From Escherichia coli (GTDB lineage: Bacteria > Pseudomonadota > Gammaproteobacteria > Enterobacterales > Enterobacteriaceae): a DNA stretch of 64,000 nt. Shown in pieces: positions 36,674 through 63,087 of the stretch. The translations under genes were made by a program, and so were the position numbers. Each line of letters opens with the position of its first letter. Within the stretch, counting starts at the first letter, position 1. The DNA lies in NCBI RefSeq assembly GCF_024502345.1, contig NZ_JALDNN010000001.1, one strand, 5' to 3'. The notes under the pieces were generated by a model. That model had not been told where the DNA came from and did no database searches. It saw only the letters and a program-made list of their open reading frames with translations.

Positions 36674-37846
36674 TTACTGCTTCAGAGTAGCAAATGCCTG
36701 AATGATGGCATCGATTTGCTCACGACTATGGGCAGCGTTTACGCTACAGCGCAGTAGCGTGATGCCTGCAGGCGCGGCAGGTGGCAGGATAAGATTCACA
36801 TAAACGCCCAGCGAAATAAGCTCGCGCCAGATGCGTAAACCGTCCTCTTTCGAACCGATTATTACCGGTACTACCGGACTAATATGTGAACTTAACTCAT
36901 AACCCAGTTTTTGCAGACCGTCATACAGATGGTTGGCGTTATCCATCAGCTTTTGCCGCAGCTCTGGTTGTGTGGCAATAGTTCTTAACGACGAGCGCAC
37001 GGTCGCAATGCAGGACGGAGAAGGAGAGGCGGTAAAAATATACGGGCGGCTGCCGTAGCGCAGCACTTCCATCGCTTCCGAACCGACAGCAAAACCGCCA
37101 ATCGAGGCCAGACTTTTACTGAAGGTGCCAACGATAATATCCACATCATCTTCAACGCCTACAGCTTCAGCCAGTCCGCGCCCCGTTGCGCCTAACACGC
37201 CAAACGAATGCGCTTCATCGACAATCAAATAACCACCGAGACGACGTTTGATATCAACAATTTCCGCCAGCGGCGCAACGTCACCGAGCATGCTGTAGAT
37301 GCCCTCAACGATGATAATCGCCTCTTTCGCCCGTTCACCGAGGCGAACCATGCGCCGTTCCAGATCTTTAGCATCGTTATGGCGGAAACGAATAATTTCC
37401 GCGCCACCGAGAGAACAGGCGTCATAAATACTGGCGTGGCTGTCGGCATCCAGTAACACCACGGCGTTATGGTCGGCAAGTGCGCTGATGACGCCTAAAT
37501 TAGCGGTATAACCGGTTGAAAAAACGATAGCGGTAGGGCGATTGAAAAACTCGGCAATCTCTTTCTCTAACGCCAGGTGCGGCGCATAACTGCCGTTTGC
37601 CATACGAGAACCGGTGGTGCCGGTGCCTTGGGCCGCTAACGCTGCCTGACCTTCGCTGATGGCATCATGATTAAAGGTTAAACCGAGATAATTATTGGTC
37701 CCGGCCAGAATCACTTTTTTATTGCCGATCCGGCCTTCGGTGGCGGAATACACTTCATCAATACAGGTGCCAAACGGTGTTAACCCGTTGTCACTAAATT
37801 GCAGTCGCTCGCCAGCAAGGCGCGCATATTTATCGTATAGCCCCAT
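36674..37846 (-). CDS. Alpha-oxoamine synthase of the serine palmitoyltransferase type (PLP-dependent)
   Basis: 390-aa ORF with PLP-lysine motif GTFSKS and adjacent dedicated ACP gene; family assignment from recalled motifs. Confidence 0.8.
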   Translation of the reverse strand: MGLYDKYARLAGERLQFSDNGLTPFGTCIDEVYSATEGRIGNKKVILAGTNNYLGLTFNHDAISEGQAALAAQGTGTTGSRMANGSYAPHLALEKEIAEFFNRPTAIVFSTGYTANLGVISALADHNAVVLLDADSHASIYDACSLGGAEIIRFRHNDAKDLERRMVRLGERAKEAIIIVEGIYSMLGDVAPLAEIVDIKRRLGGYLIVDEAHSFGVLGATGRGLAEAVGVEDDVDIIVGTFSKSLASIGGFAVGSEAMEVLRYGSRPYIFTASPSPSCIATVRSSLRTIATQPELRQKLMDNANHLYDGLQKLGYELSSHISPVVPVIIGSKEDGLRIWRELISLGVYVNLILPPAAPAGITLLRCSVNAAHSREQIDAIIQAFATLKQ

Positions 37847-38094
37847 TATTTATTCTCCAGCCATGGAAGTAGAGTTTCCATTAATTGCGCAGGGGTTTTG
37901 ACATCCAGCAGAATATTAATAGGAATGGAAATATCGAATCTGTCTTCCAGCATCATTAAGAGATCCATCACTTTGATCGACTCCAGGCCAAGATCGTTGA
38001 CGAGATCGCTGTCGGGCTTAATTTCCACACCGTTTTCGACCAAATCCTGTAAACAGGAAAGGATGTAATCCATTACTATTTCACGATTTACCAT
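37846..38094 (-). CDS. Acyl carrier protein (pathway-dedicated)
   Basis: 82-aa acidic ORF with phosphopantetheine-site-like DLGLESI; stop overlaps the SPT start. Confidence 0.75.
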   Translation of the reverse strand: MVNREIVMDYILSCLQDLVENGVEIKPDSDLVNDLGLESIKVMDLLMMLEDRFDISIPINILLDVKTPAQLMETLLPWLENK

Positions 38095-38125: not shown

Positions 38126-39042
38126 TCAAAATAGCCCGTTGCGTAATGCGTGTTCCAGGCTAATCCCGGGAAACCAATTAATATCTTCAGAAATACGGTT
38201 ATTACTTGCCGACCAGTCGGCGTGGGTTAATTCACGAATTTTCGAGCGGGTCAGCATAGGTTCTTTACCTGCCAGGCGACTCAACGCGGTACTGATATCC
38301 GCAAGGCAGGTGAGTACCGGCAGAGGAATACCAACCATTCGCACGGAACCGCAACGGACGTTGGCGGCAAGTTGCTGTATGCGTTGCCAGTCATAGCCGC
38401 TAGCGACGCCATCGCATAATTCATAGGTTTGCGTCTGTACAGTTTCGGCGCTTAACCACTGACCCACTGCTTGCGCAAAATCGGTGACGTGCAGGAAAGA
38501 GAGCTGTGTATCTGGTGCACCAAGTCGTGGCAGCAGGCCGCGCAGCATCCAGTCAAACAGCGGTTTTAACTCTTTATCGCCGGGACCATACACGGCTGTC
38601 GGGCGAAAAACGCCCAGCGTAATTTCGTCCGCCATTGCTGCCAGTCGTTGCTCGGCGACGTATTTGGATTTTGCATACCAGGAGAGCTCGGGATGGCGCG
38701 CCGCCAGCGAAGAGATAAACAGAAAACGTTGGCAAAAACCGCTCTCTTTTGCCGCCTTCATCAGGCACAGGCTGCCGTCAACGTTACAGCGGGTGAAAAT
38801 CTCTTCTTTGTGCCCGCGCACTTGCCCGGCGCAATGGACCACCGCGCTGGCTCCGGCAACCAGTTCGCTAAGTGAATGAGTATCTTCCAGCGAACCGCGC
38901 ACCCAGGTGAGATTATCATTGACGTGAGCGCGGGCAAGTACGCGTCAATGCGCGAACGTGAAAGCCGCGGGCGAGCAGGTTATCGATAATATATTTACCG
39001 ATAAACCCGGTAGCGCCCGTCACCGCGACAGTTTGATTCATG
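38126..39042 (-). pseudogene. NAD(P)-dependent epimerase/dehydratase-family reductase, frameshifted near 38919-38944
   Basis: N-terminal Rossmann motif MNQTVAVTGATGFIGKYI in ORF 38916..39251; remainder in ORF 38126..38902 in another frame, which is open upstream across the break. Confidence 0.65.
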
Positions 39043-40759
39043 CCAGGGATTCCTGCACATGAAGGCTTGCAGCATAAGCCTTCTGATAACGTTTTTTCGC
39101 TTCCGCACGGGCAGGCTTGCCGGAGGATGTTCGGGGAATACTGTGGGGCGGCAACAGATCGATAGCCGCTGTTACGCCAAATTCGCTTTGGATCCGTGCT
39201 GCCAGCGCGTGGATAAGCTGCCCGCGACGTTCTTCGTCGCTGATCCGACACTGGATCTGCAAAATGATTTTTTCCTGGGCGGTAACAAAAGCAATCGCAT
39301 CGCCAGAATGAATTTCCGGTTCTTGTTCCGCAATATATTCAATATCCTGCGGCCAGATATTACGGCCACGAATAATAATCAGATCTTTAATACGTCCGGT
39401 GACATACAGATAACCGTCCAGCAGATAACCGAGGTCGCCGGTGTCTAACCAGCCCGTCGCGGCAATCTCGTCTTGCGAAACCTGGTCGCCAAAGTAACCG
39501 CTCATCAGGCTGGGGCCGGAGATGCAAATATGGCCTACCACACGTTCCGCGACCGGCATACCTGCTTCATTGCGGATTTCAATGCCATGTTCCGGCAACG
39601 CTTTGCCGCAGTTGACGAAAGTCGATACGGCGCGTGTCTCTGCACCCGGCGCGACGGCTTTACCCTGATATTCGAGGATGTCGCGATCCACTTCGTTAAC
39701 CACAACCCCGGAGGCTTCATCAGAGAAGCTGACAGCCAGCGCATTTTCTGCCAGTCCGTAGCACGGCATGAACGTTTTATTGTCAAAGTTAACCTGACGG
39801 AAACATTCAGCGAATTGATGGAGTTGTTCTGCGGAGATCGGCTCAGCACCAATACCAGCGACGCGCCAGCAGGAAAGATCCAGTTCAGCGAGATCTTTTT
39901 CATTCACGCGGCGCTGGCACAATTCATAGCCAAACGGCGGCGCAACGGAAACGGTGCCGCGATTTTTACTGATCAATTTAAGCCATTGCAGAGGACGCAT
40001 GGCAAAATCCTGAGTGCGCAAATAATCTACTGAAAGTTGCGTGGCGACGGGGGTCAGGAGAAAGCCGACCAGTCCCATATCATGGTAGAAAGGCAGCCAG
40101 GAGACGCAGCGGTCGCCAGGGCGTAATTTAATGCCATCGTGGCTTATAGCACGTAGATTAGCCATCACTTCGCGATGGGTGATAATGACGCCACGGGGAA
40201 AACGGGTGCTGCCGGAGGTGTACTGGAGGTAGGCAATATCGTTCGGAACTGGACGCTGGAGCGCAACATCGGCTTCCGGTAATGCCTTAAACCAGGCGTG
40301 GCTTAAAACATGTAATTCGGGGTTGTTATGCGTCGCGGCATTGACCAGTGGCAACCACTCATCACCAGTGATAATGGCTGCGGGCTGGCAACTTGCCAGT
40401 AAACCCTGGAGTTTGGCGCTCCAGGAATCCCGCTGACCGACGCCCATTGGAATCGCCAACGGGACGGCGACTAAGCCAGCATACTGACAGGCAAAAAAAG
40501 CCTCTACAAACCCGCTACTCGTTTCGGCAATCAGCGCCACGCGTTCGCCTTTTTTCAGGTTCAGCGATAACAACCGCTTCGCACCAGCTTCGGCACGCGT
40601 TTTTAATGTCTGATATTCCAGTTGATCTTCAAGTTGGCAACGTCTGTCATAAAAATTCATTCCGGCGCTACTCAGAGCGGCGTAGTCCAAAGCATCAACC
40701 AGCGTTGGAAAATCGGCATAGCGCATAGGTAGGGAATGCGTAAAGATTTTATTAGACAT
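39038..40759 (-). CDS. Fatty-acyl-AMP ligase / acyl-ACP synthetase-type adenylating enzyme
   Basis: AMP-binding motifs YTSGSTRFPRGV and GYG-type; stop overlaps the reductase start (ATGA). Confidence 0.8.
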   Translation of the reverse strand: MSNKIFTHSLPMRYADFPTLVDALDYAALSSAGMNFYDRRCQLEDQLEYQTLKTRAEAGAKRLLSLNLKKGERVALIAETSSGFVEAFFACQYAGLVAVPLAIPMGVGQRDSWSAKLQGLLASCQPAAIITGDEWLPLVNAATHNNPELHVLSHAWFKALPEADVALQRPVPNDIAYLQYTSGSTRFPRGVIITHREVMANLRAISHDGIKLRPGDRCVSWLPFYHDMGLVGFLLTPVATQLSVDYLRTQDFAMRPLQWLKLISKNRGTVSVAPPFGYELCQRRVNEKDLAELDLSCWRVAGIGAEPISAEQLHQFAECFRQVNFDNKTFMPCYGLAENALAVSFSDEASGVVVNEVDRDILEYQGKAVAPGAETRAVSTFVNCGKALPEHGIEIRNEAGMPVAERVVGHICISGPSLMSGYFGDQVSQDEIAATGWLDTGDLGYLLDGYLYVTGRIKDLIIIRGRNIWPQDIEYIAEQEPEIHSGDAIAFVTAQEKIILQIQCRISDEERRGQLIHALAARIQSEFGVTAAIDLLPPHSIPRTSSGKPARAEAKKRYQKAYAASLHVQESLA

Positions 40760-41129
40760 ATACACCACGAAAAAATTGGATATCAAAAATAAAATGACAA
40801 TAATGCGGTGGATTATATAGGCATAAAAGATAAATGAGATAGTATTTTCATCGGTGTGAAAATGAACATTGATTTAAATAATGAGTTTAAGTTTTTTGTT
40901 TTTATTGTGAATGATATTTAATTTATGAATATATTAAGAAGAAGCCTTGTCCGGTCGCCTTAAATCGACAAAAGGCATTGAGGCGCTTCTGTGTAGTCTC
41001 TAACCTTATCATAATCATTAATAAATACTATTTATTCTTTGTTTGTATTCATTGGGTTGATTATTAAGGTGTCGTTCGTTGCTGTTGCAACCTGTTTTTC
41101 ACCGTTAATTATTTGTTATCCACAGAGAT

Positions 41130-42203
41130 ATGGAATGCGATCTGCTGATGATTAAAATTGAAAAAGTAATTAATAAAAATGACCTTAAGGCATTTATCGC
41201 TTTTCCGTCATCACTTTATCCCGACGATCCAAACTGGATACCCCCTTTATTCATAGAACGCAACGAGCATTTGTCTGCGAAAAATCCGGGGACGGACCAT
41301 ATCATCTGGCAGGCGTGGGTGGCAAAAAAAGCGGGGCAGATAGTTGGGCGTATTACCGCGCAAATAGATACCTTGCACCGTGAGCGTTACGGTGAAGATA
41401 CCGGTCATTTCGGCATGATTGACGCCATTGATGATCCGCAGGTTTTTGCCGCGTTGTTTGGCGCAGCGGAAGCGTGGTTGAAGTCACAAGGTGCAAGTAA
41501 GATCAGCGGGCCTTTCAGCCTGAATATCAATCAGGAAAGCGGATTACTGATTGAAGGTTTTGACACACCACCCTGTGCGATGATGCCACACGGCAAACCG
41601 TGGTATGCCGCGCATATTGAACAACTGGGTTATCACAAAGGCATTGATTTACTGGCGTGGTGGATGCAGCGAACCGATCTCACTTTCTCTCCGGCGCTAA
41701 AAAAACTGATGGATCAGGTGCGCAAAAAGGTGACCATTCGCTGCATCAATCGTCAGCGGTTTGCCGAAGAGATGCAGATCCTGCGTGAGATTTTCAACTC
41801 TGGCTGGCAGCACAACTGGGGATTTGTGCCGTTTACCGAACATGAATTCGCGACCATGGGCGATCAACTTAAATATCTGGTGCCGGACGATATGATCTAC
41901 ATCGCTGAGATTGATTCTGCACCCTGCGCGTTTATTGTCGGCTTGCCGAACATCAACGAGGCGATTGCCGATCTGAACGGATCGCTCTTTCCCTTCGGCT
42001 GGGCAAAATTGCTGTGGCGTTTGAAAGTCAGCGGTGTGCGAACTGCGCGAGTACCGCTGATGGGCGTGCGCGACGAGTATCAGTTCAGCCGCATCGGCCC
42101 GGTGATTGCGCTGTTATTGATTGAAGCCTTACGCGATCCGTTTGCCCGCCGGAAGATCGAGCGCTGGAGATGTCATGGATCCTCGAAACCAATACAGGCA
42201 TGA
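41130..42203 (+). CDS. yghO: YghO-like protein, putative N-acyltransferase, divergently transcribed from the FAAL-ACP-SPT operon
   Basis: 357-aa ORF; position matches the K-12 yghO remnant next to glcC; acyltransferase assignment is tentative. Confidence 0.5.
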   Translation: MECDLLMIKIEKVINKNDLKAFIAFPSSLYPDDPNWIPPLFIERNEHLSAKNPGTDHIIWQAWVAKKAGQIVGRITAQIDTLHRERYGEDTGHFGMIDAIDDPQVFAALFGAAEAWLKSQGASKISGPFSLNINQESGLLIEGFDTPPCAMMPHGKPWYAAHIEQLGYHKGIDLLAWWMQRTDLTFSPALKKLMDQVRKKVTIRCINRQRFAEEMQILREIFNSGWQHNWGFVPFTEHEFATMGDQLKYLVPDDMIYIAEIDSAPCAFIVGLPNINEAIADLNGSLFPFGWAKLLWRLKVSGVRTARVPLMGVRDEYQFSRIGPVIALLLIEALRDPFARRKIERWRCHGSSKPIQA

Positions 42204-50034: not shown

Positions 50035-51717
50035 ATGGTTACCTGGACCCAAATGTATATGCCGATGGGAGGACTGGGGCTATCCGCTCTGGTCGCCCTG
50101 ATCCCGATAATATTCTTCTTCGTTGCACTCGCGGTATTACGTCTGAAAGGACATGTCGCTGGAGCAATAACCCTTATATTATCTATCCTGATTGCAATAT
50201 TCGCCTTTAAAATGCCGATTGATATGGCTTTTGCTGCTGCGGGCTATGGCTTTATTTATGGATTATGGCCTATTGCGTGGATTATTGTCGCGGCGGTGTT
50301 CCTCTATAAATTAACCGTTGCCAGCGGTCAGTTCGATATTATCCGCAGCTCGGTTATCTCCATCACCGACGATCAGCGTTTGCAGGTGTTACTGATTGGT
50401 TTCTCCTTTGGTGCGTTGCTGGAAGGAGCGGCTGGCTTTGGTGCGCCGGTGGCGATTACCGGTGCGCTGCTGGTGGGCCTGGGCTTCAAACCGTTATACG
50501 CGGCGGGGCTGTGTCTGATTGCCAACACTGCGCCAGTGGCGTTTGGTGCGTTGGGCGTGCCGATTCTGGTCGCCGGTCAGGTAACGGGAATCGATCCGTT
50601 CCACATTGGCGCAATGGCGGGACGTCAGTTACCGTTCCTGTCGGTTCTTGTGCCGTTCTGGCTGGTAGCAATGATGGACGGCTGGAAAGGGGTGAAAGAG
50701 ACGTGGCCAGCGGCGCTGGTTGCTGGGGGAAGCTTCGCTGTCACTCAGTTCTTTACCTCTAACTATATTGGTCCGGAACTGCCGGATATTACTTCGGCGC
50801 TGGTGAGTATCGTCTCACTCGCTTTATTCCTTAAAGTCTGGCGGCCGAAAAATACCGAAACGGCAATCAGCATGGGGCAATCCGCAGGTGCGATGGTGGT
50901 AAATAAGCCATCTTCTGGCGGTCCCGTGCCTTCAGAATATAGTCTGGGGCAAATCATTCGTGCGTGGTCACCGTTTTTAATCTTAACGGTGCTGGTCACC
51001 ATCTGGACCATGAAGCCGTTTAAAGCGTTATTTGCTCCGGGCGGCGCGTTTTATTCACTGGTGATTAATTTCCAGATCCCTCATTTGCATCAACAAGTGT
51101 TGAAAGCGGCACCCATTGTCGCCCAACCAACGCCAATGGATGCGGTGTTTAAATTCGACCCTCTCTCGGCTGGCGGCACCGCTATTTTTATTGCGGCGAT
51201 TATCTCTATCTTCATCCTCGGCGTGGGCATCAAGAAAGGGATTGGCGTCTTTGCCGAAACGCTAATTAGTCTGAAGTGGCCGATATTGTCGATTGGCATG
51301 GTGCTGGCGTTCGCCTTCGTCACCAACTATTCCGGCATGTCCACCACGCTGGCGCTGGTACTGGCAGGTACAGGCGTGATGTTCCCGTTTTTCTCACCGT
51401 TCCTCGGCTGGCTGGGGGTATTCCTTACCGGCTCGGACACTTCTTCAAACGCCCTGTTTGGTTCACTGCAATCGACCACGGCGCAGCAAATCAATGTCTC
51501 TGACACTCTGCTGGTGGCAGCAAATACCAGCGGCGGCGTAACTGGCAAGATGATCTCCCCGCAATCTATCGCCGTGGCCTGCGCCGCGACGGGCATGGTG
51601 GGCCGAGAATCTGAACTATTCCGCTACACCGTGAAGCACAGTCTGATTTTTGCCAGCGTTATCGGCGTTATCACGTTGTTGCAGGCGTATGTGTTTACTG
51701 GAATGTTGGTCTCGTAA
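50035..51717 (+). CDS. glcA: Glycolate/lactate permease
   Basis: 560-aa polytopic LctP-family ORF. Confidence 0.92.
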
Positions 51718-51726
51718 ATCAATAAT

Positions 51727-51760
51727 GCCGGATGATCGTTAATATCATCCGGCTTCATTT
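51727..51760 (+). terminator. Intrinsic terminator of the glc operon (GCCGGATGATCG...ATCATCCGGC then TTCATTT)
   Basis: Hairpin plus T-rich tail. Confidence 0.6.
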
Positions 51761-52202
51761 ACATTATTCTGTCTTATTAATTGAAAATTATTTCTCGCTT
51801 TATTATCCATGCGGCAATAATGTTTTGTGTTCAGATAACCTGATAAATAATTAAGAGCGTGAGAACATCTATTTTTTTTATCACGCAAAACAAGTCTGTA
51901 TTAATTATGTTCGCTTGATGAGCAAACACCGTTCTATCTGTTGCTTTTGCAATCTTAATCGTTAAAACTACCAACGAATTTATATAGTTGCGTTGTGAAA
52001 TGTTGTTAATTTTTTGTTTATTGAAATTTCGTAAAAATAGCCAGCCAGACATCAAATAGGGGTTATTCTTATAAATTTCACCTGTTTTCTATCAATGATG
52101 TCGTTTTCTTAAGAATGGAGGAAATTATTAAAGAAGATAAAGCATAAAACTATTTCTCCCAGTTACGAATTTTTTAACATTGTTTTGTCACTTGCGTTAT
52201 TA

Positions 52203-61861: not shown

Positions 61862-63087
<1,226 letters not shown>

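Follow-up and report, generated by a model that had tools for sequence, protein, structure and literature searches.

Introduction

What controls the ceramide genes carried by most complete E. coli genomes, and which part of the AT-rich DNA between their two transcription units matters for that control? We address this question in a stretch of 64,000 nucleotides from Escherichia coli (contig NZ_JALDNN010000001.1; hereafter the window), in which an intergenic control region of 379 bp with 30.3% G+C (40769-41147, no strand assigned) lies between the minus-strand operon aasR-epi-acpR-spt and the plus-strand gene yghO. An earlier note on this DNA had proposed that an AT-rich control region separates two divergent transcription units here, a gene arrangement that we find as described, and that xenogeneic silencers of the H-NS type would bind it and make the locus cryptic under laboratory conditions. 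The locus itself is already known, and its control region is described here for the first time; our literature search on the regulation of these genes found nothing, and the combination of yghO and H-NS yields just a paper on the insertion sequence (IS) IS5.

We consider it probable, with moderate confidence, that the region is a composite divergent control region, in which a constrained promoter and operator block on the aasR side is joined to an unconstrained AT-rich spacer or leader, the whole probably drawing H-NS/StpA locally. The evidence that carries this reading is the uneven constraint along the region, which is given first, followed by the promoter-like elements within it, its conservation and the H-NS question.

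Three zones of constraint

Eight Escherichia sequences, drawn from three allele classes of E. coli and four further species-level lineages, were aligned across the region, with neighbouring codon positions as comparison sites; 64 of 173 third positions (37%) and 26 of 348 first and second positions vary. Next to aasR lies a near-invariant block (40769-40851, no strand) in which 3 of 83 columns vary (Fisher p=7e-10 vs third positions). Its constraint tapers off by ~40880, and pairwise identity over 40760-40880 is 93-97.5% in lineages whose third positions are 74-95% identical. The adjoining AT-rich centre (40881-41050, no strand) is hypervariable, with 87 of 170 columns varying, a rate above that of third positions (p=0.009). 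This centre holds a short G+C-richer island (~40938-41003) as well as small indels, and its identity to divergent Escherichia clades is 63-71%. The yghO-proximal part (41051-41129, no strand) evolves at about the neutral rate, 33 of its 79 columns being variable vs 37% of third positions (p=0.49). Because it is invariant, the block at 40769-40851 can be taken to have a function. The earlier description of the DNA as a control region between divergent units is thus supported by strong purifying selection on part of it, and also by an arrangement kept in 42 loci (see below). A similar layout occurs independently in Serratia and in Rosenbergiella, where ~120 bp next to aasR are conserved and the DNA beyond them varies; the sequences are unrelated.

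Composition and boundaries

The AT-rich stretch with A/T tracts that the earlier note had reported is real. Over 40787-41129 (343 bp) the G+C content is 29.7% vs 50.6% for the whole window, and just 0.49% of all 343-nt windows have a G+C content as low or lower. Runs of A/T only reach at most 13 nt and A/T homopolymers at most 6 nt, A/T runs of at least 6 nt are ~6x as frequent as the window average, and TpA density falls in the top 1.3% of windows. The AT-richness is unusual, without being unique in the window. The annotated part of the window has 17 intergenic regions that measure 80 bp or more; of these, the aasR-yghO region is the longest and has the second lowest G+C, gss-pitB (0.292) and yghT-yghS (0.301) are equally AT-rich, and the median of the 17 is ~0.44. 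G+C troughs of like depth are seen at 27463-27753 (gss-pitB, 29.2%), ~51600-52000 and ~61900-62200, the last two lying beyond 49918, where the match of the window to the genome of E. coli E2865 stops.

Both edges given by the earlier note (40787-41129) shift, its AT-rich intergenic stretch itself being sound. On the left, 40786 marks no more than the first TTG in frame with aasR, which encodes a fatty acyl-AMP ligase (FAAL). For the aasR start at ATG 40759, the NCBIfam FAAL model aligns from residue 6 and cross-genus tblastn reaches residue 1; the in-frame GTG 40768 corresponds in position to an upstream ATG in other genera. On the other side, the yghO start at ATG 41148 ('MIKIEK'; 374-aa homologues) is kept in nearly all genera, and ATG 41130, the RefSeq start, is found in Escherichia only. 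Since start codons conserved across genera bound the 40769 and 41147 sides, we set the intergenic DNA at 40769-41147; the RefSeq starts would give 40727-41129 (403 bp). Both RefSeq starts look off. For aasR, ATG 40759 or GTG 40768 is favoured over 40726 by the family model and by other genera, and for yghO, ATG 41148, in place of 41130, has a good Shine-Dalgarno sequence in other genera.

Promoter-like elements and regulator motifs

Promoter-like elements occur, as consensus matches, on both strands together with the constrained non-coding DNA. A candidate aasR promoter (40812-40840, minus strand) has a perfect -10 element, TATAAT (40817-40812), and a weak -35 element, ATCTCA (40840-40835), with a 17-bp spacer and a position weight matrix (PWM) score of 7.9; its predicted start is ~40805. 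Back to back with it lies a candidate promoter in the yghO sense (40776-40804, plus strand; -35 TTGGAT/TGGATA, -10 AATAAT; scan 9/12, PWM 8.4) with a predicted start at ~40811. The hexamers of both candidates are invariant in the alignment, and two back-to-back RNA polymerase footprints would cover ~40776-40840, most of the invariant zone. The best-scoring promoter-like site (40884-40911, minus strand; TTCACA, 16 bp, TAAACT; PWM 10.3) has an unconserved -10 element, which lies in variable DNA.

In the composite reading, the block at 40769-40851 (to ~40880) would most likely hold the core aasR promoter, with TATAAT at 40817-40812, and a short aasR leader, probably together with the facing plus-strand promoter and one or more sites for a putative specific regulator. 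The centre (~170 bp) would serve as spacer DNA or, should yghO be transcribed from the plus-strand promoter of the block, as its long leader, and the ~80-100 bp next to yghO would be left to nearly neutral evolution. H-NS/StpA on the AT-rich region would help to keep basal expression of the genes low in laboratory media. A narrower version, in which the 83-bp block is the operator and compact back-to-back promoter of a putative dedicated switch, possibly an H-NS counter-silencer, strikes us as rather unlikely.

The facing hexamers invite comparison with symmetric bidirectional promoters, which reportedly have overlapping -10 elements and starts ~18 bp apart. The likeness lies in -10-like hexamers on opposite strands a few bp apart (40799-40804 on the plus strand, 40812-40817 on the minus strand); unlike in those promoters, the hexamers here do not overlap and the predicted starts are ~6 bp apart.

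For regulator sites we ran a consensus scan against shuffled sequences for 17 regulators (Fur, PhoB, CRP, FNR, LexA, DnaA, ArcA, IHF, FadR, FabR, OmpR, PhoP, CpxR, RcsB, MarA/SoxS, NsrR and PmrA), using consensus strings that may be inexact. Two leads were obtained, each at a nominal p of ~0.02-0.03: an ArcA-like direct repeat (CGTTA, then TGTTA 11 bp later; 41103-41118, plus strand) and, overlapping it, a perfect DnaA box, TTATCCACA (41116-41124, plus strand). Together they occupy 41103-41124, from 6 to 27 nt upstream of the yghO ATG at 41130, and the DnaA box matches at 8 of 9 positions in other alleles, including that of BL21/CFT073. In the CRP chromatin immunoprecipitation sequencing (ChIP-seq) table of enterotoxigenic E. 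coli (ETEC) H10407 there is no site at the locus, whose carriage by H10407 was not checked; a nearby 'ETEC-specific' site falls in the pheV island. A terminator-like hairpin, GTTGC-TGTT-GCAAC followed by a T-run (41078-41100, plus strand), is lost through a 7-nt deletion in two Escherichia clades.

Two further repeats were seen. An 11-nt inverted repeat, TGGATATCAAA / TTTGTTATCCA, at 40777-40787 and 41112-41122 sets TTTGWTATCCA 7-8 nt upstream of a candidate start of either gene, GTG 40768 and ATG 41130; both copies are kept in Escherichia, and such pairs are common in AT-rich DNA. The divergent yghT-yghS intergenic region (29995-30167, 30.1% G+C), which precedes the plus-strand genes yghS through the lptG paralogue, carries the direct repeat TGTCACAAT twice, 16 bp apart (30073-30100). 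A comparison of the aasR-yghO region with the yghT-yghS region, the likely promoter region of the neighbouring operon that ends in the lptF and lptG paralogues, gave no common motif beyond chance.

Conservation of the arrangement and insertion sequence-associated deletions

Among 5426 complete E. coli genomes, a 701-bp stretch around the region is present, at least partly, in 4547, and the intergenic region itself is present as a single copy in 4136. The median is one place per genome, and plasmid matches account for 1 of 4557 places. The region and the aasR-yghO arrangement also occur in genomes of four other Escherichia species. Across other Escherichia species, other genera of Enterobacterales and Pseudomonas, the divergent aasR/yghO arrangement was found in 42 loci, with 270-1095 bp of intergenic DNA that is in every case AT-richer than its own locus. 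The Escherichia version (~380 bp) is shorter than that of most genera (620-800 bp) and unrelated to it in sequence, and BLAST comparison with the corresponding intergenic DNA from other genera gave no similarity outside Escherichia. The word 'xenogeneic' in the earlier note is a misfit, because the genes have a host-like composition (50-54% G+C) and the locus is widespread in E. coli and its sister species.

In genera with aasR-yghO spacers of 600-800 bp we observed a conserved mid-intergenic element of ~140 nt, with the core AAAGCATTAAGTGGTAAAAAATA and an extended -10-like sequence, TGGTAAAAT, in the yghO sense. It is present in Serratia, Klebsiella indica, Pantoea, Tatumella, Erwinia, Shimwellia and Pluralibacter, and weakly in Citrobacter amalonaticus and Hafnia; its positions in the comparison loci include 3578-3718 in L014, 2306-2446 in L015, 3602-3742 in L024, 3582-3722 in L041 and 3565-3725 in L009, among others. 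The element has no Rfam match, and a short open reading frame (ORF) inside it does not stay in frame. Rfam searches of the Serratia (L014) and Rosenbergiella (L027) intergenic DNA at permissive thresholds likewise gave no match.

Those absences of the locus that were examined are IS-mediated deletions. K-12 has IS5 at window position 41170 and everything to the left of it is gone, an IS5-linked deletion of the ceramide genes. In all, four deletions associated with IS1 or IS5 arose independently and end inside the region or next to it, at ~40740 in strain 2452, ~41073 in SY3626, 41170 in K-12 and ~41256 in STEC388. Elements of the IS1/IS5 type have been reported to favour AT-rich, H-NS-bound DNA, and a 2024 report, as cited in PMC11677980, presents H-NS as a transposon capture protein. 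AT-richness alone could explain why IS end points fall at this region.

These end points, the hypervariable centre with its small indels, and an Escherichia version shorter than and unrelated to that of most genera raise the question of whether the region is simply a mobile-element scar or recombination junction that plays no part in regulation. We regard this as extremely improbable. The region is single copy, with the one plasmid match mentioned above; long terminal repeats are missing, the repeats present being just short AT-rich chance pairs; no transposase-like ORF lies in the region; and the invariant block points to a function.

Possible H-NS binding and silencing

H-NS/StpA binding of this region is plausible. 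Since it has 30% G+C and is rich in TpA and in promoter-like sequence, the region is a likely local H-NS/StpA patch, and high AT content over at least ~200-300 bp, as expected of H-NS-type targets, is found here (30% G+C over 379 bp). Genome-wide, H-NS occupancy follows low G+C both in ETEC (PMC4287617) and in uropathogenic E. coli (PMC9765446). CFT073 and BL21(DE3) share one intergenic allele, which is 95% identical to that of the window (CFT073 NC_004431.1 3,544,845-3,545,253), and H-NS/StpA ChIP-seq of CFT073 has been published as a list of bound genes (raw data in GEO, GSE212064). In this list, c3714 (249 nt), bound by both H-NS and StpA, is the sole entry between kpsM and yghS; as the only 249-nt gene in that interval, it is acpR. 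Its signal drops from 0.216 to 0.04 in the hns mutant. The bound genes also include yghS and yghT, on either side of an intergenic region that is just as AT-rich. The list averages over coding regions, with intergenic DNA outside its scoring, so a local intergenic H-NS patch could be missed.

Indirect evidence on the activity of the native operon comes from BL21(DE3), in which expression of serine palmitoyltransferase (SPT) alone, or of AcpR/AasR alone, gives the lipid profile of the empty vector, and empty-vector extracts from complex medium contain no detectable 3-oxo-sphinganine (PMC9386255). Because these profiles stay like that of the empty vector, the chromosomal operon appears not to be functionally expressed in complex medium.

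Taken further, these data could mean that silencing is the main function of the region, with an H-NS/StpA filament that nucleates on the intergenic DNA, occludes both promoters and perhaps bridges to the AT-rich acpR 2.7 kb downstream, leaving a cryptic locus of the bgl kind. The 30% G+C over ~380 bp, the TpA-richness, the dense promoter-like sites, the loss of the acpR signal in the hns mutant, the bound yghS and yghT, the IS1/IS5 end points in the four strains and the functional silence of the native operon in BL21(DE3) all agree with such a role. We nevertheless consider it possible at best and somewhat doubtful that silencing is the main function. The coding DNA has 50-54% G+C, which makes a long H-NS filament unlikely, and the locus was not recently acquired. 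Generic binding would also leave unexplained why 83 bp are near-invariant beside an equally AT-rich centre that is hypervariable.

Several observations weigh against the composite reading as well. Those that concern its H-NS part tell equally against silencing as the main function: the CFT073 list of H-NS-bound genes does not include aasR, epi, spt or yghO; the nucleation motif TCGWTWAATT has 0 sites with at most one mismatch in the region and 2 sites within two mismatches; and helical phasing of A-tracts was not found, the observed AA/TT periodicity being reached by 41% of shuffles, so that the curvature check proposed by the earlier note came out negative. For the promoters, the assignments are consensus matches in DNA in which promoter-like hexamer pairs are 7-8x denser than in the window overall. 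For a specific regulator, none of the 17 consensuses is significant after multiple-test correction, ArcA and DnaA reaching nominal values only. The aasR-proximal block has no detectable similarity outside Escherichia, and an nhmmer search of the window with the cross-genus mid-intergenic element gave no match, the element being absent from Escherichia; as a consequence, any regulator site in the block would be genus-specific. Finally, the chromosomal epi and yghO were tentatively named as the source of sphinganine- and ceramide-like products in BL21(DE3), and if this is right, the genes are not fully silent.

The same evidence allows for an ordinary activator-dependent promoter region in which H-NS has no meaningful role and the inducing signal or activator is missing in the laboratory, the AT-richness reflecting promoter function (UP elements, easy melting) and mutational drift in the spacer. 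With its perfect -10 and poor -35, the candidate aasR promoter looks activator-dependent, such a combination being typical of this promoter type, and the strongly constrained block is consistent with sites for specific proteins. The flanking genes aasR and yghO are uncalled in the CFT073 list, and two other intergenic regions of the window are equally AT-rich. On the other hand, no activator site was recognised in the 17-motif scan, no regulator gene lies in the locus, and acpR within the operon is bound by H-NS/StpA in CFT073. As ChIP studies generally show, H-NS usually occupies E. coli DNA of such length and AT-richness, which also speaks against a region free of H-NS influence. We hold this explanation to be conceivable and on balance unlikely, and retain the composite reading.

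An improbable alternative: a cis-acting RNA or leader peptide in the aasR leader

The invariance of the block could also stem from a cis-acting RNA (a riboswitch, a thermometer or a small RNA target) or a leader peptide in the 5' leader of aasR. The block lies directly upstream of aasR; a long leader, if one begins at the promoter-like site at 40911/40884, would include it in the sense orientation, and weak pairing of CCAC with GUGG might hide the GGUG that closely precedes the aasR AUG. Inside the block, a 12-codon ORF, MKILSHLSFMPI, runs from 40851 to 40813 on the minus strand, and its start falls exactly at the edge of the invariant zone.

The results of the searches make this explanation quite improbable. 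No known RNA family was found: Rfam searched over window positions 40000-42000 at permissive thresholds gave no match at E<=1. Nor did a stable fold emerge, the aasR-sense leader (40880-40745) having a fold z of -0.86, with 37 of 200 shuffles folding as well. The upstream promoter candidate at 40911/40884 that a long leader would call for has an unconserved -10 element. The block is too invariant for covariation to be seen in the eight-sequence alignment. The ORF MKILSHLSFMPI was rejected as a leader peptide, having no Shine-Dalgarno sequence and no synonymous variation. Its sole variable site changes Pro to His, and its third positions show 0 variable sites vs 37% nearby; because the only change is non-synonymous and third positions are invariant, selection appears to act on the nucleotides, not on the peptide. 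ORFs of at least 20 aa in the region are chance ones only, with no conserved ORF among them.

Comparison with known systems

One parallel in E. coli is the cryptic, H-NS-repressed bgl operon (PMC2646131). As there, AT-rich regulatory DNA precedes an operon inactive in the laboratory, IS1/IS5 events occur at the regulatory region and a second AT-rich patch lies within the operon, here acpR, which is H-NS-bound in CFT073. The differences are considerable. H-NS repression and IS activation of bgl were shown by experiment, whereas the present system is read from sequence; the IS events here are deletions that remove genes, not activating insertions; and the region carries no H-NS nucleation motif and is followed by structural genes that are not AT-rich.

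In gene content, the locus resembles that of Caulobacter crescentus (ccna_01212-01226; CC_1154, CC_1162-1165), where aasR, epi/cerR, acpR, spt and the N-acyltransferase gene also have lptF/lptG paralogues alongside (PMC9386255; PMC11087976; bioRxiv 10.64898/2026.04.12.717747). All five ceramide genes are clustered only in Caulobacter and E. coli (PMC9386255). The regulatory DNA of the two is unrelated, however, and Caulobacter makes sphingolipids in the laboratory, which was first noticed in a study of phosphate limitation.

Loci with measured H-NS control offer a third comparison. estA2/eltAB in ETEC H10407 (PMC4287617) and kps/hly in CFT073 (PMC9765446) share with the present region a G+C content that is low relative to the genome. 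Unlike this region, they were acquired horizontally, are AT-rich over kilobases, and have measured H-NS ChIP signals and derepression; here, a patch of ~380 bp, known from sequence, lies among genes of normal composition in a widely conserved locus.

Flanking genes and locus identity

The 701 bases around the region are 100% identical to E. coli E2865, and the whole window is ~98.9% identical to it. The window is without the IS621 copy that E2865 has between yghU and hybG (~24424), and it diverges from E2865 downstream of glcB (~49918), which marks it as DNA of another, related strain. In the RefSeq annotation, the left part of the locus holds on the plus strand a cut gene (hypothetical in E2865, 'ATP-binding protein' in K-12 TG1 and CFT073), a yghQ-like flippase gene, a hypothetical gene, a YtfJ-family gene and the lptF and lptG paralogues. 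The minus-strand genes for SPT, an acyl carrier protein (ACP), an NAD-dependent epimerase and a fatty acyl-AMP ligase follow, then the intergenic region, and then yghO and glcC on the plus strand.

The first gene of the operon, aasR (39038-40768, minus strand), encodes a fatty acyl-AMP ligase or acyl-ACP synthetase (NF006624, 874 bits). It is followed on the same strand by epi (38126-39041; Epimerase profile), which encodes an NAD-dependent epimerase/reductase and candidate ketosphinganine or ceramide reductase, by acpR (37846-38094; PP-binding profile), which encodes a specialised ACP, and by spt (36674-37846), which matches the NF047599 equivalog at 599 bits vs a cutoff of 500. On the plus strand, yghO (41148-42203), also called aca, encodes a GNAT-like N-acyltransferase and is given as the homologue of Caulobacter CC_1154. 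In BL21(DE3) these genes are named aasR ECD_02851, epi ECD_02852, acpR ECD_02853, spt ECD_02854 and aca (yghO) ECD_02850 (PMC9386255). The equivalog match and this published naming uphold the label 'SPT operon' used by the earlier note, and its 'yghO' agrees with the RefSeq annotation and with PMC9386255. With 40.6% G+C, acpR is an AT-rich patch in an operon that is otherwise 52-54%. The sphingolipid locus of UTI89, lptF/lptG paralogues included, is drawn in bioRxiv 10.64898/2026.04.12.717747.

Two indels set the window apart from E2865. An extra A at 38936 frameshifts epi, and a 1-nt deletion at 42161 frameshifts the C-terminus of yghO (357 aa vs 380). The 51-mers centred on the two indels match in 0 of the 5426 complete E. 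coli genomes, so the indels are private mutations or sequencing errors.

Implications

Taken as sequence, the region is an AT-rich divergent promoter of an ordinary kind, and it draws its interest from the genes that it controls and from the sharply bounded block within it. Together the flanking genes encode a full ceramide pathway of the bacterial type, which about three quarters of complete E. coli genomes carry and K-12 lacks. The enzymes of this pathway are active on over-expression, and natural E. coli is not known to produce sphingolipids (PMC9386255). The control region would therefore decide if, and under which conditions, a common gut bacterium and pathogen produces lipids that can affect the outer membrane and host signalling. 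That ~85 bp by aasR are under strong selection, with the rest free to vary, tells experimenters which DNA to use. If the block should prove to be a dedicated switch, ceramide synthesis in most natural E. coli would start in response to a host or environmental cue that laboratory media lack, this DNA would be the place to search for the inducing condition, and E. coli, long taken to be free of sphingolipids, would be a conditional producer of them.

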